From positions 287 through 64,286 of the forward strand of contig JBOGMW010000102.1 of NCBI GenBank assembly GCA_050746805.1: a stretch of DNA of 64,000 nt. The letters are read 5' to 3'. Source of the stretch: Candidatus Acidiferrales bacterium. Lineage in GTDB: Bacteria; Acidobacteriota; Terriglobia; Acidiferrales; UBA7541. The notes under the pieces were generated by a model that was not told the DNA's origin, did not search any database, and saw only the letters and a list, made by a program, of their open reading frames with translations. The position numbers and the translations under genes were made by a program. Position 1 is the stretch's first letter; the number at the start of each line of letters is the position of its first letter. Below, piece after piece: positions 82 to 61,068 of the stretch.

Positions 82-1887
82 CTACGCCCACTTATCAATC
101 GACGCGCTCACCGTGTAGCTCAGCGTGCCTGCCTGGAAAAACGCATTGGTCTGTCCGCCGGCCACCACAATGTTGATGTCGTTCACGTGCGGCCATCGCG
201 GGATCATGGCGTCGTCCGGCATCTTGTACCAGGTAGCGTAAGGCTCCAGCCCCTTCAGCGCGCGCGGATAGTCGAATCCGACCGCGAAATCGCGGTTTTT
301 ATAATCCTTTACCGACTGGTTGGTGTTCTTGTACAGCCATTCGATCAGCTGTTCCTTCGTTTCGTACCCGCGCGACTTCAAATCCGTCGCGATGATCGGA
401 TCGGCCACCACCAGCGCGCCGAAAAATCCGGTGAACACGCTGAAGAGGTCGCAGAAGCATTCCTCGTGTTTCGGTACGGGAGCTTCCGTTCCTCTCGCGC
501 CTTGTCCCGGCACCATCCCCAGCCCGCGGAACAAGCTCACCACGTTCTCTTCCGCCTTGAATCCCTTCTGCACGTGCAGCGGCGTCCACGGACTAGCCTG
601 CTCGTTCTCCGCGATGATCAGGTTGTTGTAATTCAAATTGTTGCCCTGCGATCCCAGGTACGTGTCTCCGGGAATGCCGGCGTTCGCCAGGTTTTTCGAT
701 AGGACGGTCCATGCTCGCCCGATCGCCGCGTTCGCCTGCGCGAACGGTCCCATCGCCCCGATGCCGTAATTCATGTTCAGCTTGTCGCGGATCGGCCCGT
801 TGATCACCGCGCAGTATGCAAACGAGTTCGTCGAGCTCATCAGCGCCGGCGTTCCCGTCGAAGCGATTGCCAGCACCGTCGGCAAATATTCCGGGCGGCA
901 TCCCGCCATCACCGCGTTGATCGCCACCTGCCGCACGTTGTACGTCCAGCCCTCGTACGCCCCGCCCGCCATCTTGCCCACCAACTCGTCCGGCTGATGG
1001 CCGGTGCCTTTCAGCATCGCATCGACGCGCGCTTCGGTCGGCGCGATGATCGGCAGAAAATCCGTCATTCCATTGTTCAGATAAAGTTCCTGCAAGCCGT
1101 CGGCGGTCTCCGTATACGTCGCTGGCCCGATGTCCGGAGTGATCCTGCCGGTCTTCGTGTCCTCTGCGGTAAGCGGCCTCGTCAGCGCATCCACAATATC
1201 TTTCATCAACGGTTTTCCCGTTACCGGGTCCGGCCCCTCCACGTACGCCCACAATTGCGCCGCCGTTTTCCCCGCCACCGGATGCGGCGTGAACACGATG
1301 CGAATGTGCGGCATGCCGCGTTTGGCGGCGTTCAGGGTCGCCAGTTGCACGAACGCCTCTGTAACCAGCGGAACGGTGGGAATTCCCAGCTTCTCAACCG
1401 TTATGCAGTGACCGACGGTCGCTGGCGTGCACGTGCTTCAATGTCCGATCGCCATAATCGCGGCATTTCCATGTGCTTTGATCTCCTGCCACAGCGGCGG
1501 ATCGTCCTCGAAATAGACGCCCGCCTTGCGCCGGTACACCGTCTTCACCGTGGGCATATTTTTCTGGAACCAGATCTGCATCTCTTTCAGCAGGATATCG
1601 CCGCCTTGGAATCCCGTGTCCACCAGGTAGATGGTCTTTCCATCGAGCGTCGAAAGCCGCGGCGCCATCGGAAACAGTTGAATCGCAGGCGGCGTGCCCT
1701 TCGGATTCATCCCGGTCAATTTCACCTGTGAACTGTCGCAGCCTTCAGCCGCGCCATTTGCGCCGCCATTGAGAGCCCCCGCGGCGCCACGTGCGCCGCC
1801 ATCGCGCAGCGTCCGCGCGTCAACCTTCGCGCCCGCCAGCAGCGCCGGTGAAATCCCCAGCAACGACAACATCTTTCGCCGATTCAT
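82..1887 (-). CDS. Exported (Tat-like signal) thiol-redox protein with in-frame UGA in a U-x-x-C motif; candidate selenoprotein (UGSC-family-like)
   Basis: Track ORFs 1438..1887 and 82..1350 are in the same frame. The only stop between them is TGA 1438..1440. My translation across it reads ...HGNAAIMAIGH-U-STCTPATVGHCITVEKLGIPTVPLVTEAFVQLATLNAAKRG... The N-terminus MNRRKMLSLLGISPALLAGA is twin-arginine-like. A hairpin lies 13 nt 3' of the UGA. Confidence 0.6.
1406..1424 (-). promoter_or_regulatory. SECIS-like stem-loop downstream of UGA 1438..1440
   Basis: Minus-strand RNA CAGCGACC-GUC-GGUCACUG forms 3 bp, a C/A mismatch and 4 bp, with a GUC apical loop. It starts 13 nt after the UGA. Confidence 0.4.
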
Positions 1888-2157
1888 GCCTGTACCTCCA
1901 TGCCGCCAATCTGGCCGCCACTATACCCCCGCCCCGTAGCAGGCGCAATCGCGCCGCATGTTCGCGCGCGGCGATGTAAGGTCTAAACGTAGCGCCGGGT
2001 TCTTTAGCCCGGCAGCATTTCTCCGCGCCCGAGGATAAACGGAAAAGATCAAGACCGCCGCACTCCTTTCAGAACACCCGGCTCAGTTGCCGAATAGGGT
2101 ACATGCGATATCTGCGCGGGGTTGCTGTGCGCGCCCCGGTGCGACACACTGGGGGCC

Positions 2158-2427
2158 ATGTTCAACCGATCCGTTGACCTAACGTGTGAACAAAATGAGC
2201 GTGAGGCACTGCGCCAAAGGCTCATAGACTTTGGCAATTTGAAACTAATGGGCCGCGCAGACGAAATTGGCGACGTTAAGTTCGTCTCGTCTGATCCAGA
2301 CATTCGTAAACTGCTGGACGGGAGCACCGCACCGCTGGACAACCCACAGCCCGCCGATTCACACATCCTCCTCTTGCTTCAATCCCTGCGTGCCGACGGA
2401 TGGAGCTTCAACAGCGCACAGGACTAA
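2158..2427 (+). CDS. hypothetical protein (orphan, AT-richer islet)
   Basis: ORF 2122..2427 with an internal ATG at 2158 (MFNRSVDLTCEQNEREALRQRLIDFGNLKL...). No recognisable domain. Confidence 0.3.
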   Translation: MFNRSVDLTCEQNEREALRQRLIDFGNLKLMGRADEIGDVKFVSSDPDIRKLLDGSTAPLDNPQPADSHILLLLQSLRADGWSFNSAQD

Positions 2428-2542
2428 TCCGCCACTGTTGTCTAACCAGCAGGAGTACCATTGCCACGGTTTACACACCGATACAAAGTCCATAGAGGCG
2501 CTGACACAGAAAGCGAATAAAGCTGCGTCGAGGGTATACACG

Positions 2543-2794
2543 ATGCTCCTTCAGATCTTCGCCTTGAAGAAGCTGTTAAACGCAGCGCAAGGGGTAGCTG
2601 AGGAACAAACTCGGCCTGACATACCTAAATGTCCGACTTGCAAAAACAACCATTTCGTCAAACGCGAGCGGTGGAATTTCATATGCGCAAGCCCGACGCA
2701 CAAGCCATTGAACTTTGAGGCCGCAGACTGGGACGACCCCGATGCTAAAGCGGCAATCGAACTTCTTGAAAAAGCTAAACAGCAATGGGAGTGA
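2543..2794 (+). CDS. hypothetical small protein with CPTC motif
   Basis: 3' part of ORF 2267..2794 from ATG 2543 (MLLQIFALKKLLNAAQGVAEEQTRPDIPKCPTCKNNHFVKRERWNFICASPTHKPLNFEAADWDDPDAKAAIELLEKAKQQWE). The composition is protein-like. No family recognised. Confidence 0.35.
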   Translation: MLLQIFALKKLLNAAQGVAEEQTRPDIPKCPTCKNNHFVKRERWNFICASPTHKPLNFEAADWDDPDAKAAIELLEKAKQQWE

Positions 2795-2975
2795 GCCGAC
2801 TGGCTGGGGTTTCTGTAGCGGTTCCGCTCCAAAGGAACGGCAAATTTTCTCCGTCGGTCCGGCATCCTTAGGCGCCCCCTTCCAATATCGAAGCGTGCAA
2901 CGGCCGAAATGGCGTTAACGGCGCAAGATCGGTTTTGTGCTAGTGTTTTACAAGGACACTCAAAAGGTGCGCTGT

Positions 2976-3527
2976 ATGCTTTGTCCCAAATGCGGAAAAG
3001 AACTTGCCGATGACTCGCGGTTCTGCACGCAGTGTGGTCAGGCCGTGACGTTGTCACAGCCACTTGATCCACGGAGAAGCCCATGGAAGCGGGGTGACCT
3101 GTGTACACGAGGCTTCAAAGCGGTCGGTTTTGTGCTCGCTCACACGCCAGAATATCTGGAAATCCGTTGGGGTCAGGGCATCGGTACCGAAAAAATTCCG
3201 GCTCATCAGATTGATGACATTTGGAGGCTTGCGCACGCGGGCGCACTCTCTACTGCTGACGATCAAAAGACAAATTTGGAAGTGTTGGAGGCGCTTCTGT
3301 CTCTTGAAAAAATAAGAGACGCTATGGCCAGCAAGACCTTCAAGAACGAACGAGAGAAACTTGAAACGAACAAGTTACTCAGCAGGGCTTTTGGAGAAGA
3401 GAAGTGCGATTGGGATGTGAAGAATGGACATCGGCTTTTCCGATTGGCTGTGAACCCCGAATCAGTCGGCGTCATTTTCAAAATTCGAGAACGGATCCAC
3501 CGGGTCTTTCGCAATCGGAGCCACTGA
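2976..3527 (+). CDS. zinc-ribbon domain protein
   Basis: MLCPKCGKELADDSRFCTQCGQAV at the N-terminus (CxxC-N10-CxxC zinc ribbon). The rest is unrecognised. A strong hairpin with U-tract lies 120 nt downstream. Confidence 0.5.
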   Translation: MLCPKCGKELADDSRFCTQCGQAVTLSQPLDPRRSPWKRGDLCTRGFKAVGFVLAHTPEYLEIRWGQGIGTEKIPAHQIDDIWRLAHAGALSTADDQKTNLEVLEALLSLEKIRDAMASKTFKNEREKLETNKLLSRAFGEEKCDWDVKNGHRLFRLAVNPESVGVIFKIRERIHRVFRNRSH

Positions 3528-3649
3528 AAAACGTCGAACGTTCGTGCCTTTTTTATCGGCGGGTGGCGAACCCATCGCGGTCGAAGCCGAGCGCGGCGAT
3601 ACCGCACAACACGCCAGCAACATCGCCTGCGTAAAATCGTCTGAGGGTA

Positions 3650-3690
3650 CCGCATCCTTCGCGGCCTTTGCGAAGGGTGCGGATTTTCGC
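3650..3690 (+). terminator. intrinsic terminator-like hairpin
   Basis: CCGCATCCTTCGC-GGCCTTT-GCGAAGGGTGCGG gives a 13-bp stem with one G.U pair, followed by ATTTTCGC. Confidence 0.5.
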
Positions 3691-3715
3691 TTCGTGGGAA
3701 CGACTCGGTTCTCCG

Positions 3716-3816
3716 CTAGATTCCCAAGGCGAAAAAGTTCGTACAACGCCACATTGAACCTCGGCGCCACACCCATTCACCGTCGCTCGTTTTTTGTTTG
3801 CTTGCGTGAAGGGCGG
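3716..3816. repeat. about 100-nt non-coding repeat, copy A
   Basis: CTAGATTCCCAAGGCGAAAAAGTTCGTACAACGCCACATTGAACCTCGGCGCCACACCCATTCACCGTCGCTCGTTTTTTGTTTGCTTGCGTGAAGGGCGG aligns by eye at roughly 75-80 percent identity with 4149..4253. Confidence 0.5.
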
Positions 3817-3869
3817 GTGGCAATCTCTTGTCCGCGATGCGACGGGTGATTTGGAAGGGATAAAACAAC

Positions 3870-4004
3870 ATGAACAACGTCACGTACCAAATACTGAGCA
3901 CTCTCGCGATTCTCGGCCTCGGATTTATATTCATCGGCATGCCAATATGGGGCATCGTGGCGTTGTGCCAGAGCCGCAAAAGACGACCCACAGAACAGAG
4001 CTGA
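3870..4004 (+). CDS. 44-aa small membrane protein (below ORF-track cutoff)
   Basis: MNNVTYQILSTLAILGLGFIFIGMPIWGIVALCQSRKRRPTEQS has one hydrophobic helix and a basic tail. GGAAGGGA lies 9 nt upstream of the ATG. A terminator-like hairpin lies 22 nt downstream. Confidence 0.4.
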   Translation: MNNVTYQILSTLAILGLGFIFIGMPIWGIVALCQSRKRRPTEQS

Positions 4005-4025
4005 CGGCCCGCGGCACGCCGCGCA

Positions 4026-4063
4026 GCCGCCCGAGCTTGCCTTGGGTGCAAGGGCGGCCTTTT
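4026..4063 (+). terminator. intrinsic terminator-like hairpin
   Basis: GCCGCCC...TTGC-CTTGGGT-GCAA-GGGCGGC followed by CTTTT. Confidence 0.45.
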
Positions 4064-4093
4064 GACCTCGCCGGAAAGAGGCGCGTCACCTTT

Positions 4094-4120
4094 CTACCTT
4101 TCGCGCTGCTTCACCCGCGC
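4094..4120. repeat. 27-nt repeat, copy 1
   Basis: CTACCTTTCGCGCTGCTTCACCCGCGC matches 4413..4439 (CTACCTTTCGCGCCGGTTCACCCGCGC) at 24/27 positions. Confidence 0.6.
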
Positions 4121-4148
4121 AAAGTCTTCAATTCCTTTCCACCTGGCA

Positions 4149-4253
4149 CTAAATTCCCAAAACGGGAAGTTGGTACTGCCGCCAGATTGAACCTCGACGC
4201 TACCCCATGCCCATGCTACCGCTGCTTGTTTTTAGTTGCTTGCGCGAAGCGGC
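4149..4253. repeat. about 100-nt non-coding repeat, copy B
   Basis: CTAAATTCCCAAAACGGGAAGTTGGTACTGCCGCCAGATTGAACCTCGACGCTACCCCATGCCCATGCTACCGCTGCTTGTTTTTAGTTGCTTGCGCGAAGCGGC is the homologue of 3716..3816. Confidence 0.5.
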
Positions 4254-4412
4254 TGAGCGCAGTCAGGCAAAGCTGGACAGAACAGGAGGCGGGAACGCGA
4301 TGAACGCGACGACGAGCGCAACTGCACCAGCGCCGAGCCCGTCCCGCGCCCGCGAGGCTAGGGTGACAGGGCGAAGCTTCAGCCCTGCCGAAAACCCGCC
4401 TCCCACCAGGCT

Positions 4413-4439
4413 CTACCTTTCGCGCCGGTTCACCCGCGC
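4413..4439. repeat. 27-nt repeat, copy 2
   Basis: See 4094..4120. Confidence 0.6.
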
Positions 4440-4459
4440 GACGCGCCTGGTTTCTGCCT

Positions 4460-4494
4460 TCACCAGTCACCACTCACCAGTCACCAATCACTCT
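4460..4494. repeat. heptanucleotide tandem repeat (5 units)
   Basis: TCACCAG TCACCAC TCACCAG TCACCAA TCACTCT. Confidence 0.8.
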
Positions 4495-4746
4495 TTGCGA
4501 CCGGAACAGTCAATCGAGTCGAAGCACACGTAAGTCGCAGAAAACAAACGGCCGGACACCCGTCCACCCGGAACGTCCCGCATCAAGAACCTCTCGGACT
4601 TTTCGCCGTTTCCGCCGCGTCAATCGGGTATAGAATCGTCGTTCCTAGCCACTCATATGCGCCGGATGTTTCGCGCTCAAATTTCGAGCGTGCCGGCGCT
4701 CAAATGTCCGCCACAAATCGAATTTGCGGTCTAAGGAATTTTTCAG

Positions 4747-6735
4747 GTGCAATCGAACATCAGACGTTGGTCCGCCATCTTTTCTTCACGGCCCCTTGCC
4801 GGAGCCACTGGCCTTTTGCTAACCCTCCTTGCCGTCTCGCCGGCGCTCGCCGCGCCGCCTTCGAAGTCTTTGTCGCCTTCCACTCCTTCCTCGAATATCT
4901 CGAGCGTCAGCGTACCTCCCGAGCAGCTCATCCAATATCTCAACCAGTCCATCGACCTCTATCACCAGACCGCCATTCAGCAGCACATCGCCACTGAACC
5001 TCAGGAACAACTGCTCCTCTACGACAATCGCCAACTGGCCGATCAATCCGTCCAGCTAGCTTTCCAGTTCGCGCGCGCTCAATTGGACGTCATGTCCGCC
5101 GAGCCCGCGTCCTCTCTGGTCGCCAAAGCTTCCGCTGGTTCGCCGCAGTACAACTCGCTGCGGCAAATGCTTGCGTCCATCGAAAAAAATCTTCAGGAAA
5201 CCCAAGACGAATCCGACGCCGACACCCAGAAACTCGCTACCGTTACCGGCGCCAAACGCGCCCAGTTGAAATCCACAATTGCAGAGTTGCAGGGCGAAAT
5301 TGCCCTGGCTCGGGCCCGCCGCGACGCTGTTCGCAACATGCTCGAATTCGTCGGGAGTTCCGCCAACAATGCGCTCAGCGCCAGCGGACTTCGTGCGCAA
5401 ATCGACGCTCTCGCTTCGTCCGTTCCCTCAGCCAGCTCCGCATCGGTTGCTTCCGGCAAGGCACGTTCCACCGAGCCTTTCTCCCTCACCGATGGCAAGA
5501 GCGCGCCCTCCAATATCTGGGATCTCTTCGCCGATCTTTTTGGCCTTTCTTCCAAGCTGCGCACCGTAAACTCCATGCTCGCGGATACCAACGCGCTGCT
5601 GAAAACTTCCGATAGCCTTCGTGCACCTTTCCTCGCGCGGTTGCGCGATCTTTCGAAGCAGGGAGACACGCTCGCCGCCCAGGCGGACACCGCCGACCTT
5701 TCGCATCTCGCGCAGGAGCGCCAGCAGCTCGATGCCATCGCCGCTCAATTCAGGCAGTTAGCCACAGGCGTTATTCCTCTCAGCAAGCAGCGCGTCTTGT
5801 TGGGCCTTTACCAGAAAAATCTCGTCAGTTGGCGCGATACCGTCTACGGACGTTATAAATCGGATGCGCGCAGTCTCGGTATTCGCCTGGGCGCGTTGGC
5901 CGTTGTCTTCGCGATTGTTTGGGGGCTCTCCGAACTTTGGCGCCGCGCCGTCTACCGCTATGTCCGCGAGCCGCGCCGCCGCCATCAATTCCTGCTGATT
6001 CGTAAGCTCACCTTCTGGTTTGTCGTTGCCGTGATCGTGATTCTCACCTTCGCCAGTAAGCTCGGCTCGTTCGTCACTTTTGCTGGTTTGCTGACCGCCG
6101 GTCTCGCCGTTGCCCTCCAGAACGTGCTCGTTTCCGTGGTCGGCTATTTCTTCTTGATCGGTAAGTTCGGAATCCGTGTGGGCGATCGCATCCAAGTCAG
6201 CGGCGTCCACGGGGAAGTGATCGAGATCGGCCTGGTGCGTTTTCATCTGATGGAACTCGGCGACGGTGCCACGCCCACCGGCCGCGTCGTCGCCTTCTCG
6301 AACTCCATCGTGTTCCAGCCCACTGCGGGACTTTTCAAGCAGATCCCCGGCGCCTCGTTCGCTTGGCATCAGGTGACGCTCACCGTCCCGCGCAGCGCCG
6401 ATTTCGGCGCCATCAAAAAGAATCTCCTCGGTGCCGTCGAGGATGTCCTCCGCGATTACCACACCGATATCGAAACCGTTTATCACCACATGGAGAAAAC
6501 GGGAATCGTGATGTCCGATCGAGGCCTGCGTCCCAAGCTGGAGCTGCATCTCACGCCTGCGGGTATCGACGCCACCATCCGCTATCCCGTCGATCTCCAG
6601 CACGCCTCCGATATCGACGCGCGCGTCTCCCGTGAACTTCTCAACGCCCTCGAACGCGACACCAAGCTCCAAACTCCCGAAGGCCCCGCCATCCACCTAA
6701 AAACTGACGTCCCCGCCGTCACCCCCTCCGGCTAA
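4747..6735 (+). CDS. mechanosensitive ion channel, MscS family (MscK-like, long N-terminal coiled-coil domain)
   Basis: 662 aa. It has a signal-like N-terminus, a Q/L/A-rich coiled region and TM helices. The MscS core reads LTAGLAVALQNVLVSVVGYFFLIGKFGIRVGDRIQVSGVHGEVIEIGLVRFHLME. Confidence 0.85.
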   Translation: MQSNIRRWSAIFSSRPLAGATGLLLTLLAVSPALAAPPSKSLSPSTPSSNISSVSVPPEQLIQYLNQSIDLYHQTAIQQHIATEPQEQLLLYDNRQLADQSVQLAFQFARAQLDVMSAEPASSLVAKASAGSPQYNSLRQMLASIEKNLQETQDESDADTQKLATVTGAKRAQLKSTIAELQGEIALARARRDAVRNMLEFVGSSANNALSASGLRAQIDALASSVPSASSASVASGKARSTEPFSLTDGKSAPSNIWDLFADLFGLSSKLRTVNSMLADTNALLKTSDSLRAPFLARLRDLSKQGDTLAAQADTADLSHLAQERQQLDAIAAQFRQLATGVIPLSKQRVLLGLYQKNLVSWRDTVYGRYKSDARSLGIRLGALAVVFAIVWGLSELWRRAVYRYVREPRRRHQFLLIRKLTFWFVVAVIVILTFASKLGSFVTFAGLLTAGLAVALQNVLVSVVGYFFLIGKFGIRVGDRIQVSGVHGEVIEIGLVRFHLMELGDGATPTGRVVAFSNSIVFQPTAGLFKQIPGASFAWHQVTLTVPRSADFGAIKKNLLGAVEDVLRDYHTDIETVYHHMEKTGIVMSDRGLRPKLELHLTPAGIDATIRYPVDLQHASDIDARVSRELLNALERDTKLQTPEGPAIHLKTDVPAVTPSG

Positions 6736-6835
6736 TCCGTCAGTTCGCCGAAGGCGGCTCAACGTGGTCGATCACGAGGCGGCCATGTGCCCTAGCCTTT
6801 CCCGGCGAAGATTCCTGGCCGCCACGCGGTTCTCC

Positions 6836-8612
6836 TCAGTTTCCGCTTGGCCGTTCGACGTGCTCGATGACGAGGACATCCACGGGAGCTTTTGCCGATA
6901 CGATGTTCAGCCCGAGTTGCTTGCGTAGAGCAACGAGAAACGGTGCGTTTGAGGGGTCGGCGGGCTTTGGCATTCCGGGAGATCTCGGCGTCCAATGCAA
7001 CTTGAAGCTGTAGCGGCCATGAAGGCCGGTCTGGTCCACGAGCGGCCGGCTGCTTCCCCCCGGGAGAAGCTCAACGATCCCAAGGAAGTCATTCAAAGAG
7101 CAGGACTTCATGTAGAACCCGCGCTTTCGCGGACCGTACCCTGGAGGTCCAGTTATTCGGCAAGGCCGGTTACCGGTCTTATCTTCGGTGATCTTCGGGC
7201 CATTTTTAGTCAAAACCAGCTCAAAGATGGGAAGCACCTTGGTCTCGTGCTTTACTCGCAGCTTGAACCGATTGATCAGCAGAGAGCGAAGCATCAGCAT
7301 GGCTTGATCTGATCGTTCATAAAGCGAGAGATTCTTCCATTTGCCATTGACGATGGAATCGCTCACCTTGGCGTTGATCTGGTAGAAATCGGTCCTTATC
7401 CACGACGGACCTCCCAATACCTGGGTCGGGCTCAGCGGCCTTACGTGCGGCTGGCCGTACGCATCCATAATTAACGCCGCCACGATCGTGCTCGCACTGA
7501 AATTGCCACGAGATAGTCGAACGCCCGCGAGCGGCATGCCTGGCAGGAGATTGCCTGCCACCAGCGGTGTTTGTAGCTGATCCGGTTTGATTGACGCGGT
7601 CTCAAACGAAGGCAATCGCGCGTTGCCCGCTTCTGCGCCCTGGGTTCCACCTTGTGATGCAAAACCCGTCATGCCCAAGGCAAGCGGTACCGCAATTGCC
7701 ACAGCCGCAGCCCCGCCCAGCAGCAATTTTCTCCCCGGTGTCAGCCTCTGGCCGATGTGCCGGGCCATGATGTGAACGATCCGCCTCTTCAGGTCTGAGC
7801 CGATGATTCCCGATACGCAAACAACCGGCGATTTGACGCAGTGCTTGCAGACATTGAGAATCGCGTCGGCGTACTCGCGCGGCTCTCTGCCCTGCGCCAG
7901 CACGGATTCATCGCAGGCACGCTCACGTTCTTCGACCAGCCTCGCTCCAATCCACCAGACCAGCGGATAGAACCAGAAGACCGCTTCAACGATCATGTGG
8001 ATCGCCGCCGTCAAGTTATCGCGTATTCGAATATGGCTTAGCTCATGCGCGAGAATCGCCTCTAGTTGAGGGCGCTCAAGGGTCTTGAAGATGCCTTCAG
8101 GCAAGAGCACTGTTGGCCGAAAGAATCCGATCACGCCGGGTTCGAGCAGTCCGGGAGAAGAGCGAACGGCAAGCGTTGCTGGAATGTCGATCGGCGTGCT
8201 GGCGCGGAGAGGAGCACGAACGCGGAGCCAGTCGCGCAGGCGCATCAAGGCGACGGCCGCAAATCCACATGCCCAAACGGCGAGAACCACGACCGTAACC
8301 CAATCGATTGCGTGCCTCGCTGCGGGCGCTAGAGTGATCGTGTCTGGGGAATGGCTGAGTGATCCGCACAATCGTGTCTGAGACAGCCGGCGAGGCGATC
8401 TCCGAGGCAATGTTCCCGGCTGCCAGCGAACCCCACAAGTGGTGACCGAGGCTCACCAACAGCGAAAATGGAATTAGGAACTTGACCGAGGCGCTAAGCC
8501 AAAGCCAGTAGCGAACCTGGGCTCGATTTTTGCGGAAGGCCAGCGTCAATAGGCCCACTGCAACCACAAACACCGTTGATTGCCACAAATGGTTCACCAC
8601 TTCAGCGATCAT
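6836..8612 (-). pseudogene. BlaR1/MecR1-type M56 peptidase sensor fused to a TIGR03435-like C-terminal domain, interrupted by a frameshift
   Basis: The N-terminus (MIAEVVNHLWQSTVF...SPAVSDTIVRITQPFP) is in the frame of ORF 8097..8612. The rest is in the frame of ORF 6836..8410 (DTITLAPAARHAIDW..., HELSHIRIRDN HExxH, C-terminal FETASIKP...LVDQTGLHGRYSF...). Removing one C from the CCCC run (plus-strand GGGG 8346..8349) joins the two frames. Confidence 0.75.
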
Positions 8613-9009
8613 TTCGGCTTACGCGTCCTTTCTGCTTGTGTTCGAGCTCAAGCTTCTTGATCGTCTTCTCCAACTCTCGAACGTCATCGAGTGTAAGCTT
8701 TCCGGCTTGGGCCAGTTCGGCCATCATGGGCTGAGCTCGCCCCCCAAAGAAACTCAAAATCTCGTCGAGCAACCGGTGGCGCGCGACGTCCCTCGGCACG
8801 ATCGGCTCAAAAATATGCGCGTTGCTGATCTTCCGTACTCGGCGAACCGCTTTCTTACCCTCCAACCTGTACACGGTGGTCTGGACGGTGGTGTAAGCAG
8901 GGCGAGGTTCCGGAAACGACTCCTGGATCTCGCGAATGGATGCCCTCCCATTCGTCCACAGGGCCTCCAGGATTTGGAGTTCGAGCTTGGTTAGTTTCTG
9001 GCGGGCCAT
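8602..9009 (-). CDS. BlaI/MecI/CopY-family transcriptional repressor
   Basis: MARQKLTKLELQILEALWTNGRASIREIQESFPEPRPAYTTVQTTVYRLEGKKAV is a winged-helix penicillinase-repressor fold. It overlaps the blaR1-like start by 11 nt. Confidence 0.9.
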   Translation of the reverse strand: MARQKLTKLELQILEALWTNGRASIREIQESFPEPRPAYTTVQTTVYRLEGKKAVRRVRKISNAHIFEPIVPRDVARHRLLDEILSFFGGRAQPMMAELAQAGKLTLDDVRELEKTIKKLELEHKQKGRVSRNDR

Positions 9010-9036
9010 GGGCCTCCTACTATGTCGCGTCTAAAT

Positions 9037-9053
9037 CTACTATACTGTAGTAG
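9037..9053. promoter_or_regulatory. candidate BlaI operator (inverted repeat)
   Basis: CTACTA-TACTG-TAGTAG lies 28 nt upstream of the blaI-like start and contains TAC/GTA half-sites. A related CTACTATG occurs at 9017..9024. Confidence 0.4.
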
Positions 9054-9467
9054 GTGTCCGAGAGTAAAATCCTGAATCTTTGCGGGACGCAGCCGAAACC
9101 TGTTGTATCTTTGCTTAAATTAGAGCACGCTAAATCTGTGAAGTTGTGGCTGGGAGCGGTGGCAATCGCAAGCGGTGCCGCAGCCGCCGAATGGGGTGTC
9201 ACCATTGAATCAAGGCGCGACCACTTGGAGCGTAACGCAGCCGGGCCACCCCGCGCGCCATCGTACGTCCCTGTGGCTCGCGCGCGTCGATTGCGCCCGC
9301 TGGTCTCCGCTAGGCTCCTCAGCGAACGCCAAGCGAAAGTTAATAGCGAACCCGCGTCGAGTAGAACGCGAGCTAACTACCCGTCAATCCAGCAACTTCC
9401 ATTTTTCTAATCGCGAACTTTCTGGGACTTGTGGCAATTGGACTGAGGTAATCCGAGGAGCCCGCTA

Positions 9468-10898
9468 GTGGCCACCCAAGCGCCGCCAGAATCGAAACCC
9501 ATGCCCACGCGGATTGAATCGGACAGCATGGGGAAGATTGAGGTCCCCGCCGACCGCTACTATGGTGCGCAAACGGCCCGCTCGCTGATCCATTTCCACA
9601 TCGGCGACGACACGATGCCGCCCGAGCTCATCCGCGCCTTCGGCATCCTGAAAAAAGCCGCCGCGCTCGTGAATCAGGATCTGGGCAAGCTTCCCTCAGA
9701 AAAAGCCAAGCTGATCGCTCAAGTCGCCGACGAAGTGATCGCCGGAAAGCTCGACGCGCATTTTCCTCTCCGCATTTGGCAAACCGGCAGCGGCACTCAA
9801 ACCAATATGAATGCCAACGAGGTGATCTCCAATCGCGCCATCGAGATCGCCGGCGGCGTGATGGGCAGCAAAAAGCCGATTCATCCGAATGACGACGTGA
9901 ATATGTCGCAGTCCTCGAACGATACGTTTCCGACGGCCATGCATATCGCCGCCGCTTCGCGCGTCGCCGAAGCGCTGATTCCGTCGGTCGAACGTCTGCA
10001 CGACGCTCTCGATGCCAAAGCCAAAACGTTCGCGAATATCGTAAAGATAGGCCGCACGCATTTAATGGATGCCACGCCGCTCACCGTCGGTCAAGAAATG
10101 TCCGGCTGGGCTAGCCTGCTGGAACGCGATGTTGCGCGTCTGCGCGAAGTGCTCTCGGGCCTCTACGACCTCGCGATCGGTGGTACCGCCGTCGGCACGG
10201 GCCTCAACGCGCACCCGGAATTCGCGGACCGCGCCGCCAGGAAGATTGTCGAGCTCACCGGCCTGCCGTTCCGCTCGCATCCCAATAAATTCGCCGCGCT
10301 TTCCGCGCACGATGAAATCGTCTTTGCCAGCGGCGCGCTGAAAACCCTTGCCGCCTCTCTAATGAAGATCGCCAACGACGTCCGTTGGCTCGCTTCCGGC
10401 CCGCGCGCGGGACTCGGCGAACTTATTCTTCCAGAAAACGAGCCCGGCTCGTCGATCATGCCCGGCAAAGTGAATCCGACGCAGTCCGAGGCTATGACCA
10501 TGGTTGCCGTGCAGGTCTTCGGCAACGACGCCGCCATCGGGTTTGCCGGATCGCAGGGCAATTTCGAGCTGAACGTATTCAAGCCGGTGATGATCTATAA
10601 CTTCCTGCACTCAGTCCGCTTGCTCACCGACGCCTGCCGCTCTTTTACCGATCATTGCGTGCAGGGCATGGAAGTGGATACGCAGCGCATCGAGCAGTAT
10701 GTGAAGAACACTCTAATGCTCGTTACCGCGCTAGCTCCCAAAATTGGATATGAGAAAGCCGCCGCGATCGCTAAGAAAGCGCATCACGAACACACGAGCC
10801 TTCGCGACGCTAGTCGCGAGCTCGGCTATATCTCGGAGCAAGAATTTGACCAAATTGTGCGCGCGGAAAAAATGACCAAGCCAGGAAATGTTTCGTAA
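9468..10898 (+). CDS. fumC: class II fumarate hydratase
   Basis: 476 aa. [17 protein letters not shown] signature. The N-terminus [25 protein letters not shown] is typical. A GAGGAG SD lies upstream of the GTG start. Confidence 0.95.
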
Positions 10899-11104
10899 AC
10901 GCCTTGCCTGTTTCATTCCGGCACATATCTAGGAATATTTGTGCGCGACGTATCACTTTGAGTGCTCGACGAATTGACGATTCTTATTTCTCGCACATGT
11001 GCCTCGCGAGTATGAAAAATCCCTTTGACTCGCGCGCACCTCTTCATTAAATTCGCATTCCCTTTGGGAACCTCTCGCACTTTCCCCCTTCCGCAGGAGT
11101 TCTT

Positions 11105-11830
11105 ATGCTTATACTCGTTGCGGAAAACGACCCGGCGCTCGGCACATATCTCGAGCGCGGATTCAATGCCGAGCACTACGCCGTCGATCTTGCGGTAGAC
11201 GCCGAGCAAGCCACAAATCGCGCCCTCGCGCACAAGTACGACGCCGCAATCCTGGACCTGAACTTTGCGCAGTCCGAAGGTCTCGATGTGCTGCGGAGCA
11301 TTCGCGTCAACTGCCAGGATTTGCCCATCCTGATCCTCGCCAATCAGGCTCGCCCGGAAGAGCGTGCGCAGGTTCTCGATCTTGGCGCGGACGATCTGCT
11401 TTTGAAGCCCTTCGCCTTTTCAGAGCTTTCGGCGCGGGTAAGGGCCCTCTTGCGCCGCGGTGGACGCGCTCCGGATGTAGTGCTACGCGTGGACGACCTG
11501 GAACTAAATCGCGTGGAGCACTGCGTGAAGCGCGCGCAAAAGAAGATCGAGCTAACGCCCAAGGAATTCGCGCTGCTGGAGTATCTAATGCGCAATTGCG
11601 GGCGGCGCGTGACCCGCGCGGAAATCATCGAGCACGTCTGGAACCTGAACTTTGACACCATGACCAACGTGGTCGACGTGTACATCAATTACGTTCGCAA
11701 AAAGGTGGACGCGTCGGCCGGACACAAGCTGATTTACACGATCCGCGGCGTCGGATATCAACTGCGCTCTCCGATTGCGGCGAGCGCGCCCGTAGCACCG
11801 CACGCGGCTGCGCCGATCGCTTCCAATTAA
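11105..11830 (+). CDS. OmpR/PhoB-family response regulator
   Basis: Receiver domain (MLILVAENDP...AAILDLNF...LLLKPF) plus winged-helix Trans_reg_C (ELTPKEFALLEYLMRNCGRRVTRAEIIEHVWN...IYTIRGVGYQL). Confidence 0.9.
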   Translation: MLILVAENDPALGTYLERGFNAEHYAVDLAVDAEQATNRALAHKYDAAILDLNFAQSEGLDVLRSIRVNCQDLPILILANQARPEERAQVLDLGADDLLLKPFAFSELSARVRALLRRGGRAPDVVLRVDDLELNRVEHCVKRAQKKIELTPKEFALLEYLMRNCGRRVTRAEIIEHVWNLNFDTMTNVVDVYINYVRKKVDASAGHKLIYTIRGVGYQLRSPIAASAPVAPHAAAPIASN

Positions 11831-11867
11831 AGGCCCAGGAATTGTCGCTTAGGTTGAGGAGGATTGA

Positions 11868-13100
11868 ATGTCAGCAGCCAGCCAAGCAATTGCAAGCAGA
11901 AGCGCCAGCCGAGTTTTGGTGGCCAGTCCGCGCGCGGAATTTCGCAAGGACGTCCTGAAATCCCTTCCGCCGGCCACGTGCGGAGCGGAAGAGGCAGCGG
12001 GTGGCGCGGACGCCTTGCTCAAGCTCAGCGAACAGGATTTTCGTACGCTGCTGCTCGATCCGCGGCTAGACGACTTGGACGTCAACGAACTGGTGGAAAC
12101 GATTCATTCGCGCCATCCCGCGGTCAACGTGGTGGTACTCGACCGTGAATCGCACAATGAGCAATTGACGTTTGATCTGGCAGGCAATTCCGCAGCTGAA
12201 CAGTCGACGCAAGAAACGGAGCCGAGGCAATCTGAAAACGTGGATGCGGCGATTGTTTCCGACGCTTTACCGGTTTGCTCGTATTTGCCGGAGGAAGCAC
12301 AGCAGCCTGAACGACATGAATCCGCGCTCAGCGAGCCCTTGCCGGACATGATCGGGACCAGCCGCACGATGCAGCAGATCTGCAGGTTGGCGCGTTTGGT
12401 CGCGCCCCGCAGCACCGCCGTACTGATTGTGGGCGCCACCGGCACGGGCAAGGAACTAGTAGCTCGCGGCATTCACGCGCTCAGCCGCCGTAGCCGCGGT
12501 CCGTTCGTGGTGGTCAATTGCGCGGCGATCCCCGAGAGTTTGCTGGAGGCGGAACTTTTTGGATTCACGCGCGGCGCGTTCACCGGCGCATTCCAATCGC
12601 GGCTGGGCCGCATCCACGCGGCGCATGGCGGAACGCTATTGCTCGATGAAGTCGGCGAGTTGCCGCTGAGCATGCAGGCGAAACTTCTGCGGTTCGTGCA
12701 GGAAGGCGAAGTACAGCGGCTGGGAAGCGCGGACTTGTTCCGCGTGGATGCGCGGCTGATCGCGGCCACCAACGCGGACTTGCTGCAGCGGGTCCGCGAA
12801 AAACAATTTCGCGAAGATCTGTATTACCGGCTCTCGATTTTTCCGCTGAATCTGCCGCCCCTGCGCAATCGAACGGAAGACATCTTGCCGCTTGCGGAAC
12901 ACTTTTTGGAAACGCTGAGCCAGCAGAGCGCGCTGCCGCGAAAAAGTCTGAGCCTCGAAGCGTCGCGGCTGCTGCGCGCGCATTGCTGGCCGGGCAACGT
13001 ACGCGAGTTGCAGCACTCGATCGAGCGTGCGTTCGTGCTGGCCGATGGCCACGCGCAGATTCGAGCCGAAGACTTCAGCATGCCGGCGGCTTCCGCCTAA
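11868..13100 (+). CDS. sigma54-dependent activator (bEBP) with degenerate receiver and no C-terminal HTH
   Basis: Walker A VLIVGATGTGKELVARGIH. GAFTGA loop (RGAFTGAFQS). ESLLEAELFG. The protein ends ...NVRELQHSIERAFVLADGHAQIRAEDFSMPAASA, directly after the AAA+ domain. The N-terminal REC-like region has VLVASPRA where the DD/DE pair normally sits. A GAGGAGG SD is present. Confidence 0.85.
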   Translation: MSAASQAIASRSASRVLVASPRAEFRKDVLKSLPPATCGAEEAAGGADALLKLSEQDFRTLLLDPRLDDLDVNELVETIHSRHPAVNVVVLDRESHNEQLTFDLAGNSAAEQSTQETEPRQSENVDAAIVSDALPVCSYLPEEAQQPERHESALSEPLPDMIGTSRTMQQICRLARLVAPRSTAVLIVGATGTGKELVARGIHALSRRSRGPFVVVNCAAIPESLLEAELFGFTRGAFTGAFQSRLGRIHAAHGGTLLLDEVGELPLSMQAKLLRFVQEGEVQRLGSADLFRVDARLIAATNADLLQRVREKQFREDLYYRLSIFPLNLPPLRNRTEDILPLAEHFLETLSQQSALPRKSLSLEASRLLRAHCWPGNVRELQHSIERAFVLADGHAQIRAEDFSMPAASA

Positions 13101-13149
13101 TAGTTATAAATTTCTAAGGCCCGCGCGGCCTGCATGGACCCAATTTTGC

Positions 13150-14508
13150 ATGGGTCTATGCGCCATGCCGGAATCCGCAATTCGCAACAGCCCGGTCCGC
13201 CGGGAGAAGCAAGCGCGCCGAACGCCGCGGCAGAAAATTGCAACGAGAAGGACGCTCGAGCGCGCGTTCCAGAATTTCACGCACGCCGCCGACTCGCTAC
13301 AAAAATCCTACGCACAGTTGCAGGGTGAAGTGCTGCGGCTGCGCTTCGATCTGGAGCGCACGAACCGCGACTTGGCGTCGAGCGTAGAAGAGAACGCGCG
13401 CATGCGCCGGTATCTCGGCCAGGTTCTAGAAAGCCTGCCATGCGGAGTGCTGGTAGTTACAACCGATGGCGAAGTGCGCATGGCCAATCCCGAAGCGCGG
13501 CGGCTGCTTTCGCTTACTTCCGGCCATCCAGCAGATGACGCGGCTGGGCTGGCGCTGCCGCAGGAAATTGTCCAGCAGGCCCTCGACTTGTGCCGAAAAT
13601 CGTCGACGCCCGCCACTTTGGAATACGCGATTCTGGCGGCTTCAGGCGAGCGGATCGTTGGTCTCGTTTGCGCTGTGCTGGGCGATGCCGACGGAGAAGG
13701 ACTGAGCGGCGAATCGGTGCTGCTGCTTCGCGATGTGACCGAGGAGCGAAAGCAAGCAGCCGAGCGCGAATCAGCGCGACGCAAGGAGTCCCTGGCGGAA
13801 ATGGCCACTTTGCTGGCCCACGAAATTCGCAACCCTCTTGGCAGCCTGGAACTGTTCGCCGGACTTTTGGCTGACGCGGCTGCCACGCAGCCGGATCTGC
13901 GGCGTTGGACGGACCACATCCAAGCGGGACTTCGCGGTCTCTCTGCAACCGTCAACAACGTCCTTCAGTTTCACAGCCAGCCTGATGCGCAATTGACCGA
14001 CGTGAATTTAGGCCGCCTAATGCGCGAATCCGTCGAGTTTCTGCGGCCCCTGGCGCGGCAAGCCGGGCTAAAAATTGACCTGCAAAACTCGCTCGGGGAA
14101 TTGGAAATTCCGGCGGACGCCCACCGATTGCAGCAAGTGTTTTTCAATCTGGCGCTCAATGCGTTTCGTGCCATGTCCGTGGGAGGAACGCTTTCGATAC
14201 GGCTGCAGTGGGCAAACTTTGAGCAGCTCAATGAAGTGCGTATTTCGTTTGAAGACACCGGTCGCGGGATCGCTCCGGAACACCTGGCAAAAATATTCGA
14301 GGCTGGTTTCTCCACGCAACCTGGCAATCCAGGCATCGGGCTTTCGGTATGCCGCACGGTCGTGGAGCAGCATCACGGGACAATCTCGGCAACGAGCGAG
14401 GTGGGCAAAGGCGCCACTTTCTGCGTGATCGTGCCGCGAGTGGTGGTGGCTTCCCAAACGAGCCGAGGTTTGCTGAGCGAGGGACTGAGCGTCGGGAGAA
14501 GCGCATGA
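13150..14508 (+). CDS. cytoplasmic PAS-domain sensor histidine kinase
   Basis: No TM segment seen. Coiled-coil region. PAS-like LESLPCGVLVVTTDGEVRMANPEARRLL. H-box LAHEIRNPLGSL. HATPase FEDTGRGIAPEHLAKIFEAGFST...GIGLSVCR. The start is uncertain (ATG 13150 or 13165). Confidence 0.85.
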   Translation: MGLCAMPESAIRNSPVRREKQARRTPRQKIATRRTLERAFQNFTHAADSLQKSYAQLQGEVLRLRFDLERTNRDLASSVEENARMRRYLGQVLESLPCGVLVVTTDGEVRMANPEARRLLSLTSGHPADDAAGLALPQEIVQQALDLCRKSSTPATLEYAILAASGERIVGLVCAVLGDADGEGLSGESVLLLRDVTEERKQAAERESARRKESLAEMATLLAHEIRNPLGSLELFAGLLADAAATQPDLRRWTDHIQAGLRGLSATVNNVLQFHSQPDAQLTDVNLGRLMRESVEFLRPLARQAGLKIDLQNSLGELEIPADAHRLQQVFFNLALNAFRAMSVGGTLSIRLQWANFEQLNEVRISFEDTGRGIAPEHLAKIFEAGFSTQPGNPGIGLSVCRTVVEQHHGTISATSEVGKGATFCVIVPRVVVASQTSRGLLSEGLSVGRSA

Positions 14509-26695: not shown

Positions 26696-27019
26696 ATGGC
26701 GCCGTCCACTACCACAGCTGTCGTCGAACCATCTGTGCACCCCGCCCCGCCCGTGCACGCTGCGCCGCCGACGCCCGCCGCGACAGCTTCCGATCCCTGG
26801 GCTGGTTTTCTGCACGTTTCGATGATCGTCGCTGTCGACGCGACCATCGTCGGCTTGACGGTTCGCGAACTGTTTCGCCTGGAGAGAGGTTCGATCGTCG
26901 CCACCGCGCAACTGGTTGAATCGAACGTGCCTTTGAGAGCCGGTGGATCGCTGATTGGATGGGGCGAGTTTCAGGTTGTCGGAGAAAAGCTGGCCGTGCG
27001 CGTAGCGGAGTTGGCCTGA
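26696..27019 (+). CDS. short FliN-family (SpoA domain) switch protein
   Basis: 107 aa. A P/A-rich N-terminus, then VAVDATIVGLTVRELFRLERGSIVATAQLVESNVPLRAGGSLIGWGEFQVVGEKLAVRVAEL. Confidence 0.75.
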   Translation: MAPSTTTAVVEPSVHPAPPVHAAPPTPAATASDPWAGFLHVSMIVAVDATIVGLTVRELFRLERGSIVATAQLVESNVPLRAGGSLIGWGEFQVVGEKLAVRVAELA

Positions 27020-27028
27020 GTATCGTCC

Positions 27029-27346
27029 ATGACGCTAAAAGCAAAAATCGCAATGGAACCGCAAAGCGTTCCCATTTCGCGGGCCTCCGCTTTCGATCTG
27101 TTGCGCTCGGTGTTCGCGCGGCTCTCCAGCCTTGGCATCAGCCGCGTGTGGCGGCGTAACGCGCGCGGCTTGCGCGTTTGCGAGACGCTTTCTCTCGGGA
27201 ATCGCGGCTACATCGCCGTGGTCAGTTACCGGCGGCAGGAGTTTCTCGTCGGCGGCACCACAAATTCGATTGCGCTGCTGGCGCAGCTCTCCACTGCGTC
27301 CGAGGCAGAGCAGAAGAGTCTGGAGGACGACGATCCGACGCGCTGA
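27029..27346 (+). CDS. fliO: FliO-like flagellar biosynthesis protein
   Basis: Position immediately upstream of fliP. LRVCETLSLGNRGYIAVVSYRRQEFLVGGTTNSIALLAQL resembles the FliO core. The TM segment is weak. Confidence 0.55.
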   Translation: MTLKAKIAMEPQSVPISRASAFDLLRSVFARLSSLGISRVWRRNARGLRVCETLSLGNRGYIAVVSYRRQEFLVGGTTNSIALLAQLSTASEAEQKSLEDDDPTR

Positions 27347-27371
27347 TGCGCAGCCGCCGGCTCGCGGGCCC

Positions 27372-28121
27372 ATGAAATGTTCCGCGCTGATCACACGCCT
27401 TTCTATCGCCACCGCGGCTTTCGTCGCGTGGCCCGTGTCCGCCTGGGCGCAGACGCAATCGCTGCCCGCGCTTCCGCTGCGCCTTCCGCCCATTTCTGAC
27501 AGTTCCACATGGACCATCGTCGTGGTCCTCACACTGCTCACGGTGTTGCCGGCGCTGTTGCTTTCCATGACGCCATTCGTGCGCATCCTGATCGTGTTTC
27601 ACTTTCTGCGTCAGGCGCTCGGCACGCAGGACACGCCCAGCAACCAGACGCTCATCGGCCTGGCGCTGTTTCTGACGTATTTCGTGATGCAGCCCGTGGG
27701 CGTGCAAATCAATCGCGTGGCTATCGCGCCGCTCGAAGCGCATCGCATCACCGCCATGCAGGCGCTCGATCGGGGCTCCGTTCCGTTACGCGATTTCATG
27801 CTCCGGTTTACGCGCGAGAAGGATCTCGCCCTGCTTACCGACATGGCGCAGATTCCGCGCCCACGCGAGCCTTCCGACCTGCCCATGCGCGTGGTGATTC
27901 CTGCGTACATATTGTCCGAAATGAAAGCGGGATTTCAGATTGGGGCGGTGTTGTTCTTGCCTTTCATGGTGGTGGACATGGTGGTTGCGGCCATCACCAC
28001 GTCGGTCGGAATGCTGCAACTTCCACCCGTGATCATCTCCACGCCGCTGAAAATTTTGCTGTTCGTGGTGGCCGACGGATGGAACCTGGTGGTCGGCTCG
28101 CTGCTGAAAACTTTTTCGTGA
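27372..28121 (+). CDS. fliP: flagellar export gate protein FliP
   Basis: Signal peptide MKCSALITRLSIATAAFVAWPVSAWA. LLLSMTPFVRILIVFHFLRQALGTQDTPSNQTLIGLALFLTYFVMQPV. Confidence 0.95.
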   Translation: MKCSALITRLSIATAAFVAWPVSAWAQTQSLPALPLRLPPISDSSTWTIVVVLTLLTVLPALLLSMTPFVRILIVFHFLRQALGTQDTPSNQTLIGLALFLTYFVMQPVGVQINRVAIAPLEAHRITAMQALDRGSVPLRDFMLRFTREKDLALLTDMAQIPRPREPSDLPMRVVIPAYILSEMKAGFQIGAVLFLPFMVVDMVVAAITTSVGMLQLPPVIISTPLKILLFVVADGWNLVVGSLLKTFS

Positions 28122-28130
28122 GGCGCATTC

Positions 28131-59973: not shown

Positions 59974-61068
59974 ATGCGATCAAGGATAGCGATGGCCAAC
60001 GAAGTGCCGAACGACCTGGCCGAAAAAGCAGCGATCATGCGGGAATTTGGACGGCTGCGCGCCGCAGGGCAGCCAATTCCGGCGGAGTTACAAGCGAAGC
60101 ACGTCAACGCTACCAACGACGGCTACACCACCGGCCCTGAGCCTGCAGAGCGAATCCCCGATTTCTCGTTGGCCGACCAAAACGGAATGTCCAGGTCGCT
60201 CGTAAATCTCGCCGGGGCCAACGGATTGCTTTTGGTGTTCTATCGCAGCGCGGATTGGTGACGCTACTGCCGCTCCCAACTCGTCGAGTTGGAACAATCA
60301 CGCACGATAATCGAAAAGGAAGGCTTTCGCATCGCGGCCGTCAGTTACGATTCGCAGGAAAAACTTCGCAATTTCGGGCAGCAATACCAGATTGGCTTTC
60401 CGCTGCTTTCCGATGCTGGCAGCGCCGTGATTCGCAGCTTCGGAATCTTGAACACCAATATCGCGCCCGAGCTGCGGGCGCACGGTGTTCCGCATCCCGT
60501 GCAGTATCTGGTCGCGCCGGACGGCATCGTCATCCGCAAGTATTTCGTGCCCAATTACCAGCATCGCGTCGCGGGATCTGCCGTTGCTCTGCAAGAATTC
60601 GGGGCCACGAGCCACCTCGCACCAGCGGTCACTTTGCATAGTGGCGCATTGACGGTGCACCTGGGTCTATCGACAGAGCAAGCTTTCGCCGGCCATGAAA
60701 TCGGTTTCTTCGCCAAATTCGCGCTTGAACCGGGCTGGCACGTCTACGGCGCACCGCTGCCGGAGAACTACACCGTAACGTCCGTGACGTTCGATGACCC
60801 CAGCATCATTCGCCAGTCGTTTGAATTGCCGCCGCCCGTTCCGCTGCGAATCGCGGCGCTTGGGGAAACGCTGCCGGTTTACAGCGGTTCGTTCCAAGGA
60901 TCGGGTTCGCTCTTACTGAAATATCCGCTCGACGAGGGCAGGATCACACTCTCAGGCCGCGTCCGCTTCCAACAATGCAGCGACACCGTCTGCGAGCCGC
61001 CTGAAACTCTCCCGTTCGACCTTCCGCTGACTCTTCAACCATTCCAGATCGCGCCGCAGCGCAAATAG
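59974..61068 (+). CDS. AhpC/TSA-type (peroxiredoxin-like) protein with in-frame UGA at the first Cys of the W-C-x-x-C motif, fused to a DsbD-alpha/DsbC-like C-terminal domain; candidate selenoprotein
   Basis: ORFs 59974..60261 and 60289..61068 share one frame, and the only stop between them is TGA 60259..60261. The read-through is ...IPDFSLADQNGMSRSLVNLAGANGLLLVFYRSADW-U-RYCRSQLVELEQSRTIIEKEGFRIAAVSYDSQEKLRNF... The C-terminus reads FALEPGWHVYGAPLP...GRVRFQQCSDTVCEPPETL. Confidence 0.65.
60276..60292 (+). promoter_or_regulatory. SECIS-like stem-loop downstream of UGA 60259..60261
   Basis: CCAACUC-GUC-GAGUUGG forms a perfect 7-bp stem with a GUC apical loop. It starts 14 nt after the UGA. Confidence 0.45.

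Follow-up and report, generated by a model that had tools for sequence, protein, structure and literature searches.

In selenocysteine insertion sequence (SECIS) elements of the Escherichia coli fdhF type, a hairpin begins about 11 nucleotides (nt) after the UGA codon and carries a GGUC-containing apical loop, the G and U of which contact SelB. The periplasmic formate dehydrogenases FdnG and FdoG, which are exported via the twin-arginine translocation (Tat) pathway, are selenoproteins as well. This article describes a gene in a 64-kb stretch of DNA (the window) from the Candidatus Acidiferrales bacterium contig JBOGMW010000102.1, namely the minus-strand frame 1887..82, which is interrupted by a single TGA. 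With a probability that we put at about 0.88, this is one gene for a selenoprotein of the UGSC family in which a downstream hairpin directs the incorporation of selenocysteine (Sec) at codon 150 (UGA150), and the resulting residue is part of a redox centre; that the protein is a Tat substrate is likewise probable, at a somewhat lower confidence. The UGSC-containing protein has been described as an abundant selenoprotein of unknown function (PMC1976440, PMC13188914). The literature, including reviews of the prokaryotic selenoproteome (PMC1976440, PMC2398784, PMC9312934, PMC13188914), place its first report in marine metagenomes and Hyphomonas neptunium, mention it also in freshwater metagenomes and consider it to be thioredoxin-like. 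One of these papers, from 2008, mentions a "UGSC/Unknown_1 fusion" (PMC2398784), the second part of which may correspond to the C-terminal domain described below.

The gene shares with the UGSC family a domain that extends across the UGA, the placement of the U-x-x-C motif and the alternation of Sec and Cys. It differs in that the family model NF041046 comprises 147 positions, whereas here an additional 385-residue C-terminal domain and a twin-arginine leader are present. As in fdhF-type elements, the hairpin is part of the coding sequence, follows the UGA directly and has a G-U in its apical loop. Similarly to FdnG and FdoG, Sec would be incorporated in the cytoplasm, and export of the folded protein by means of its twin-arginine leader would follow, but the protein lacks a molybdopterin or Fe-S domain and is unrelated in sequence to these enzymes. 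A further point of comparison is the GrdB/GrdF/PrdB family (PF07355), which comprises selenoprotein B of glycine/sarcosine/betaine reductase (GrdB, GrdF) and PrdB of D-proline reductase, given that the Sec motif of PrdB is listed as U-x-x-C in Table 2 of PMC2398784.

A continuous reading frame of the UGSC family

The frame comprises 602 codons including the final stop and thus, as read from the sequence, encodes 601 residues including Sec150, starting with MNRRKMLSLLGISPALLAGAKVDAR. The only internal TGA is codon 150, in the context AAIMAIGH-U-STC-TPATVGHC, with Cys153 two residues past the TGA. An earlier note on this DNA, made from the sequence alone, had joined two open reading frames (ORFs) of the same frame, split only by this TGA, into one 601-codon protein and had pointed out the position of the UGA two residues before a Cys (MAIGH-U-STC); the frame agrees with it on both counts.

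For the family assignment, the query was the protein with Cys substituted for U. A Pfam scan identifies PF24696 (UGSC) over residues 62-215, across the UGA, with 100.5 bits against a gathering score of 25 (E = 1.5e-28; model positions 5-158 of 172), so that the resemblance to the UGSC family pointed out in the earlier note is confirmed. The literal U-G-S-C motif is absent and is replaced by U-S-T-C. Among the homologues, the variants USTC, USGC, UGGC, USSC, UAGC and UPGC are found, that is, U-x-x-C is the constant part, and several long homologues from both the acidobacterial clade and the other clades (see below) are named "UGSC family (seleno)protein" by NCBI. The gene belongs to the acidobacterial clade, characterized by U-S-T-C and the Tat leader, of a family that is already represented in Pfam, NCBIfam and reviews.

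Apart from UGSC, the sole NCBIfam matches are weak and align residues 134-205 with the GrdB/GrdF region 330-396, which we take to hold the GrdB selenocysteine. These matches (TIGR01917 and NF040794; E = 0.033 and 0.037, about 13 bits versus cut-offs of 602 and 800) do not support membership in the GrdB/GrdF family. There is no match to PF07355 in the Pfam scan of the 601-residue protein, and none of the genes grdA, grdE and prdA is seen as a neighbour in the loci examined. On the sequence comparisons, homology with GrdB/GrdF/PrdB is possible but membership in that family is unsupported.

The UGA codon alternates with Cys codons

A protein search identifies 2813 relatives that fall into two classes. 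The first consists of undivided, full-length genes (578-615 aa) with the sequence MAIGHCSTC or MAIGHCSGC; the second consists of fragments of 410-445 aa that start just past the position of the UGA and include the closest relative (95% identity). To read the codon aligned to residue 150, DNA was examined for 81 loci from species-representative genomes and 80 loci from metagenomes. This codon is TGA in 77 cases, TGC in 11, TGT in 2 and TTA in 1 in the genome loci, and TGA in 74 cases and TGC in 8 in the metagenome loci, which amounts to about 150 TGA and 21 TGC or TGT codons among some 170 homologous genes. The hosts belong to Acidobacteriota, Chloroflexota, Desulfobacterota, Alpha-, Beta- and Gammaproteobacteria, and Actinomycetota, including the cultured Pseudonocardia acaciae DSM 45401. 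Thus, as the earlier note had anticipated, the homologues continue across the UGA column and bear either Cys or TGA there. U150 and C153 alone are conserved across the family; Cys161 is a feature of the acidobacterial clade only.

A related locus, L001, comes from an independent assembly (GCA_030038275.1). It is 86.7% identical to the gene at the nucleotide level and contains the same TGA, followed by 56 nt that are identical in both. These identities rule out a sequencing error, a possibility that the earlier note had raised, as well as a sporadic nonsense mutation. Synteny with L001 extends over the gene and an MscS-like gene (4747-6735), at a DNA identity of 77-87%. The approximately 2.7 kb between these two genes (1932-4600 in the window, 6650-9454 in L001) cannot be aligned, and the coding signal of this region in the window is weak.

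Tandem paralogues, in two to three copies, are frequent in acidobacterial genomes (L002, L003, L004, L011, L015, L082-L084, L163, L164). Some of these arrays comprise Sec (TGA) as well as Cys (TGC) forms; the hairpin codons described next are present only in the Sec copies.

A hairpin under selection only in the Sec forms

The UGA is followed by 13 nt and then by CAGCGACC-GUC-GGUCACUG (1424..1406), which can form a hairpin with a stem of seven Watson-Crick pairs and one internal C.A mismatch. The case for this element comes in part from codon usage in the acidobacterial clade, which has the motif PATV[G/S]HC. After the UGA, all 37 distinct Sec forms of the clade read CCA GCG ACC GUN (G/A)GU CAC UGC, whereas the adjacent synonymous sites vary freely. 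Positions +13..+23 and +26..+33, which contain six synonymous sites, never vary among these 37 forms, so that the block is invariant save for +24/+25, where the loop ends and the 3' arm begins. In a codon alignment of 33 full-length Sec-form genes, 8 of the 185 columns with a conserved, degenerate amino acid show no codon variation; seven of these lie at residues 149-161 (H149, U150, P155, A156, T157, H160 and C161), and the eighth is Y420.

By contrast, none of the nine Cys-form genes of the clade keeps the CCA..ACC..(G/A)GT combination: the Pro codon is CCC, CCG or CCT, and residue 159 is encoded by GGC, GGA, GCG, AGC or AAC. In locus L163, a Cys-form gene is located directly upstream of a Sec-form paralogue, and the Sec copy has the exact hairpin codons. 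Given that these codons are invariant in the Sec forms and not in the Cys forms, the constraint operates at the RNA level and is linked to the UGA.

Sequences from outside this clade comprise 111 distinct Sec forms and 16 Cys forms; here, the hairpin has an 8-bp stem at +10..+29, about 3.5 nt nearer to the UGA. A hairpin with this stem and a GGUC loop (+18..+21) is present in 90 of the 111 Sec forms versus 3 of the 16 Cys forms. The stem shows compensatory synonymous changes (CCG..GUC, CCC..GUG, CCA..GUU, CCU..GUA), with a covariation score of 0.299 compared with a shuffle mean of 0.177 +/- 0.014; none of 500 shuffles reaches this value, and controls with slid partners yield at most 0.178. With its GGUC tetraloop and 8-bp stem, the element of the distant homologues is very near the fdhF geometry, whereas the hairpin of the acidobacterial clade lies about 3.5 nt further downstream, has the loop (C)GUN(R) at +21..+25 and retains the C.A mismatch. 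The recoding mechanism is conventional.

A second selenoprotein gene and the decoding of UGA in this organism

The window contains a second candidate selenoprotein gene, a fusion of an AhpC/TSA-type redoxin with a DsbD_N domain. A Pfam scan detects AhpC-TSA at residues 59-187, across U96, and DsbD_N at residues 232-346. Homologues read SADWCRYC at the UGA column, and the nearest relatives are called as post-UGA fragments of 253-259 aa. The hairpin of this gene, a perfect 7-bp stem at 60276..60292, begins 14 nt after the UGA and has a GUC loop (60283..60285). The earlier note had ascribed the same geometry to both hairpins; the GUC loop indeed occupies +22..+24 in both, but the start is at 14 versus 13 nt and the stem is perfect in one and mismatched in the other.

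In the window, TGA is the stop codon of 12 of the 29 genes supported by a family match, which indicates that the genetic code is standard and that recoding of UGA is site-specific. In two loci on contigs of alphaproteobacterial metagenome-assembled genomes (L045 and L046, ~6000-13400), the genes downstream of the homologue, in the same orientation, are selD, a TrxB-like gene, selA, selB and tRNA-Sec, and sel genes or tRNA-Sec occur near the homologue in several further loci. Taken together, the second gene with Sec/Cys alternation, the use of TGA as a normal stop and the presence of homologues next to sel genes provide indirect support for Sec decoding in this organism.

A third thiol-redox gene in the window, encoding a ResA/TlpA-like oxidoreductase in the Cys form, shows a weak, sub-threshold match to the NCBIfam "WAxxUGC" selenoprotein family.

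Evidence to the contrary and alternative explanations

Several results weigh against the interpretation of this gene as an exported UGSC-family selenoprotein. The match to NCBIfam NF041046, an equivalog, reaches only 83.6 bits, below the cut-off of 125 (E = 1.3e-23; residues 82-214); by this score the 601-residue protein is related to the curated equivalog but falls outside it. The hairpin alone folds with -11.3 kcal/mol (z = +0.31), 120 of 200 shuffled sequences are at least as stable, and another fold is preferred when 61 nt are folded. For the hairpin claimed in the earlier note, the position stands, but the stem contains a mismatch and its stability does not exceed chance. An Rfam search, at gathering as well as permissive thresholds, finds no SECIS or other family at either UGA. 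Pairs of same-frame ORFs split by TGA are frequent in this window of 59% G+C: there are 37 of them under loose filters on length and on G+C content at third codon positions (GC3), and in 10 of these a Cys lies within three residues of the TGA. No tRNA-Sec is found, ARAGORN detecting no tRNA of any kind in the 64 kb, and NCBIfam scans of the 30 largest ORFs of the window, which identify a flagellar cluster, fumC, sigma-54 regulators and acidobacterial paralogue families, reveal no selA, selB or selD. Finally, NCBIfam and Pfam scans at E <= 1 match no twin-arginine signal family. Given that TGA-split pairs are frequent by chance and that the hairpin is of ordinary stability, the ORF-pair pattern is not significant by itself; it is the comparative data that lend it significance.

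The alternative that retains most weight concerns the destination of the protein and not the recoding: the gene product could be a selenoprotein but no Tat substrate, being instead equipped with a general-secretory (Sec-type) signal or a membrane anchor, or remaining in the cytoplasm. Most non-acidobacterial homologues (the majority of those from Proteobacteria and Chloroflexota) indeed start about 55 residues later and have no leader, a subset of them possesses classical Sec-type signals (e.g., MKLRIAVIAVLCIGL...), and the lack of a match to a twin-arginine signal family in the scans above points in the same direction. However, the leader of this protein combines an RR pair at residues 3-4 with a core of mild hydrophobicity and with A-x-A sites that have basic residues close to them, and typical Tat leaders combine paired Arg with a weakly hydrophobic core containing Gly, Ser and Pro and with basic residues near A-x-A. 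All 41 complete N-termini of the clade match (N/K)-R-R-x-(L/M/I)-L-x-(L/M)-(L/M/I)-G-x-S-P-A, also summarized as N-R-R-K-(L/M)-L-S-L-(L/M)-G-x-S-P-A, followed by A-x-A-type sites and basic residues; among 121 other homologues there are two true cases of the motif, both acidobacterial. This distribution suggests that a Tat signal was added specifically in this clade, and export via Tat in the acidobacterial clade is probable, whereas a destination of another kind appears unlikely, if still worth considering. The twin-arginine-like signal noticed earlier is thus borne out as a conserved motif, and export is what this leader predicts. The accompanying remark that exported selenoproteins are uncommon was overstated, given FdnG and FdoG and the fact that many predicted Prx-, Trx- and DsbA-like selenoproteins bear signal peptides.

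Under a second alternative, the UGA is a true stop, and the locus consists of two genes (149 aa and about 420 aa) or of one gene inactivated by a nonsense mutation. Public gene calls are in line with such a split, as in L001 (143 + 428 aa) and in the many entries of 410-445 aa, and the abundance of TGA-split ORF pairs in the window makes a chance arrangement conceivable. Yet some 30 residues separate the UGA from any downstream start (STCTPATVGHCITVEKLGIPTVP...), and this stretch shows conservation at the protein level and is crossed by the Pfam domain; the Cys homologues are single genes of full length; the TGA is kept in homologues from different phyla, whereas a nonsense mutation would be sporadic; and selection on the downstream hairpin is seen only in genes with TGA at this codon. 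Termination at this codon is accordingly very improbable.

No more credible is the explanation that the UGA is read as an amino acid other than Sec, either through genome-wide reassignment (to Trp or Gly) or through near-cognate suppression with insertion of Trp or Cys. The absence of Sec machinery from the window would be expected in this case, but TGA terminates many of the window's own genes, the column alternates only with Cys, which is the signature of Sec, the hairpin matches bacterial SECIS elements such as that of E. coli fdhF in its position and G-U loop, and homologues are encoded beside selD, selA, selB and tRNA-Sec. A sequencing or assembly error for TGC or TGT, suggested by the many homologues with TGC, one base off, has a negligible probability because an independent assembly that is 13% divergent over the gene shares the TGA and the 56 nt that follow it, and because the hairpin codons of the clade always accompany TGA (37 of 37 members that have them) and occur in 0 of 9 Cys forms.

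Proposed mechanism, C-terminal domain and gene neighbourhoods

Reading UGA150 as Sec thus remains the preferred interpretation, under which the SECIS hairpin, 13-32 nt downstream and with its apical G-U at +22/+23, would recruit SelB with Sec-tRNA(Sec), leading to insertion of Sec at this codon. In the AlphaFold model of a Cys homologue (P0002; predicted local distance difference test, pLDDT, 78; predicted template-modeling score, pTM, 0.69), the motif lies where a beta-strand gives way to a helix, within a domain of alternating beta/alpha architecture, a placement that, in the model, fits a selenol/thiol redox centre. In this position of the UGSC domain, Sec150 and Cys153 would most likely cycle between the selenol/thiol and selenenylsulfide states. 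This centre may serve, or be served by, the fused C-terminal domain of 385 residues, which has no conserved Cys and in which the conserved residues are polar. The twin-arginine leader would send the folded protein to the periplasm in the acidobacterial clade. The C-terminal domain could bind or transform a substrate, and the cytoplasmic versions of the protein might be recycled by a TrxB-like partner.

The C-terminal domain family consists of 5484 clusters at 50% identity (E <= 1e-3). The domain contains many invariant polar residues, including an S-S-T-x-S loop that is of low confidence in both structural models. No Pfam or NCBIfam family matches residues 216-601, and a sequence profile search against PDB yields a single match with E = 0.88. 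A Foldseek search with the full-length model retrieves generic alpha/beta folds, with a template-modeling (TM) score of 0.18 at best, and no thioredoxin-fold protein; the model of the C-terminal domain gives a best E of 0.043 with a probability of 0.2 and TM scores of 0.17-0.20, to Toblerone-fold cyclic amide hydrolases. With such values, kinship with these hydrolases is not accepted. Pyruvoyl-type self-processing at the S-S-T-x-S loop was also considered, and nothing was found in its favour. In a search of representatives, the only extra domains in multi-domain relatives are UGSC and one copper amine oxidase N-terminal domain. In the databases, some proteins about 710 aa in length match the C-terminal domain profile in two stretches and contain no Pfam domain, not even UGSC.

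Gene neighbourhoods provide the only functional hints. In 22 loci of the cytoplasmic clades, a gene for a TrxB-like flavoprotein is found near the gene, on the same strand. The neighbours in the acidobacterial clade include pyrroloquinoline quinone (PQQ) dehydrogenases (8 of 33 loci), cytochrome c (4 of 33 loci) and the tandem Sec/Cys paralogues. In some alphaproteobacteria, the position of the gene at the head of the cluster with selD, the trxB-like gene, selA, selB and tRNA-Sec hints at a role in selenium handling. It can be proposed, tentatively and at odds that we consider to be less than even, that the long form is a widespread selenoenzyme with a new catalytic module as its C-terminal domain, which is Tat-exported in Acidobacteria and recycled by the TrxB-like protein in the cytoplasm.

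Features of the window

The coordinates of the features discussed above are collected in Table 1. The window also contains a flagellar/motility cluster (~17200-53900) with fliF, fliG, fliI, a FliK-like gene, flgE, flhB, flhA, fliA, fliM and fliN/Y, along with flgI, flgK, flgL, fliD, flagellin, motA and motB. Members of the TIGR03435 and TIGR03436 paralogue families are present, which fits an acidobacterial host. At 27000-29200 on the plus strand, immediately upstream of flhB, two TGA codons (28119-28121 and 28398-28400) split same-frame ORFs of high GC3 (360, 92 and 260 codons), which probably represent neighbouring genes for flagellar export that share a frame by chance and not a case of recoding. 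An overlapping ORF of 565 aa (27509-29206; GC3 0.42) has no family match and is probably spurious.

Table 1. Coordinates of the UGSC-family gene, its elements and other thiol-redox genes in the window
Feature	Coordinates	Strand	Basis
Selenoprotein coding sequence, complete	82..1887	-	Continuous frame; stop TAG 84..82; full-length Cys homologues of 578-615 aa align throughout
Shine-Dalgarno-like GGAGG	1895..1899	-	Sequence read; 7-nt spacer to ATG 1887..1885
Predicted twin-arginine-type signal peptide, residues 1-26, MNRRKMLSLLGISPALLAGAKVDA	1810..1887	-	RR-x-h-h...G-x-P motif; clade conservation
UGSC domain, alpha/beta, bearing the U-x-x-C centre (residues 62-215)	1243..1704	-	PF24696; NF041046 below cut-off; AlphaFold 2 model of Cys homologue
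UGA codon 150, decoded as selenocysteine	1438..1440	-	Aligned codon is TGA in ~150 and TGC/TGT in 21 of ~170 homologous genes
Cys153, putative resolving cysteine of U-S-T-C	1429..1431	-	Invariant in protein alignment; kept in nearly all loci
SECIS element	1405..1425	-	Hairpin CAGCGACC/GGUCACUG at 1424..1406; apical loop G-U-C at 1416..1414
C-terminal domain (residues 216-601)	85..1242	-	No conserved Cys; invariant S-S-T-x-S loop; no family match
ResA/TlpA-like thiol-disulfide oxidoreductase	56905-57831	-	Signal or anchor; WCPPC motif; Cys form
Second selenoprotein gene, AhpC/TSA-type redoxin-DsbD_N fusion	59974..61068	+	UGA 60259..60261 in W-U-RYC

Implications

The UGA causes this gene, like most of its relatives, to be split or cut short in public databases, so that the redox centre and the signal peptide are missing from protein catalogues. 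The UGSC family itself is very large and occurs mostly in the Sec form, and the TrxB-like reductase and the neighbouring sel genes offer starting points for experiments. For the organism, the analysis indicates that selenocysteine is employed by a flagellated acidobacterium in two or more redox proteins, the first of which carries a predicted export leader.

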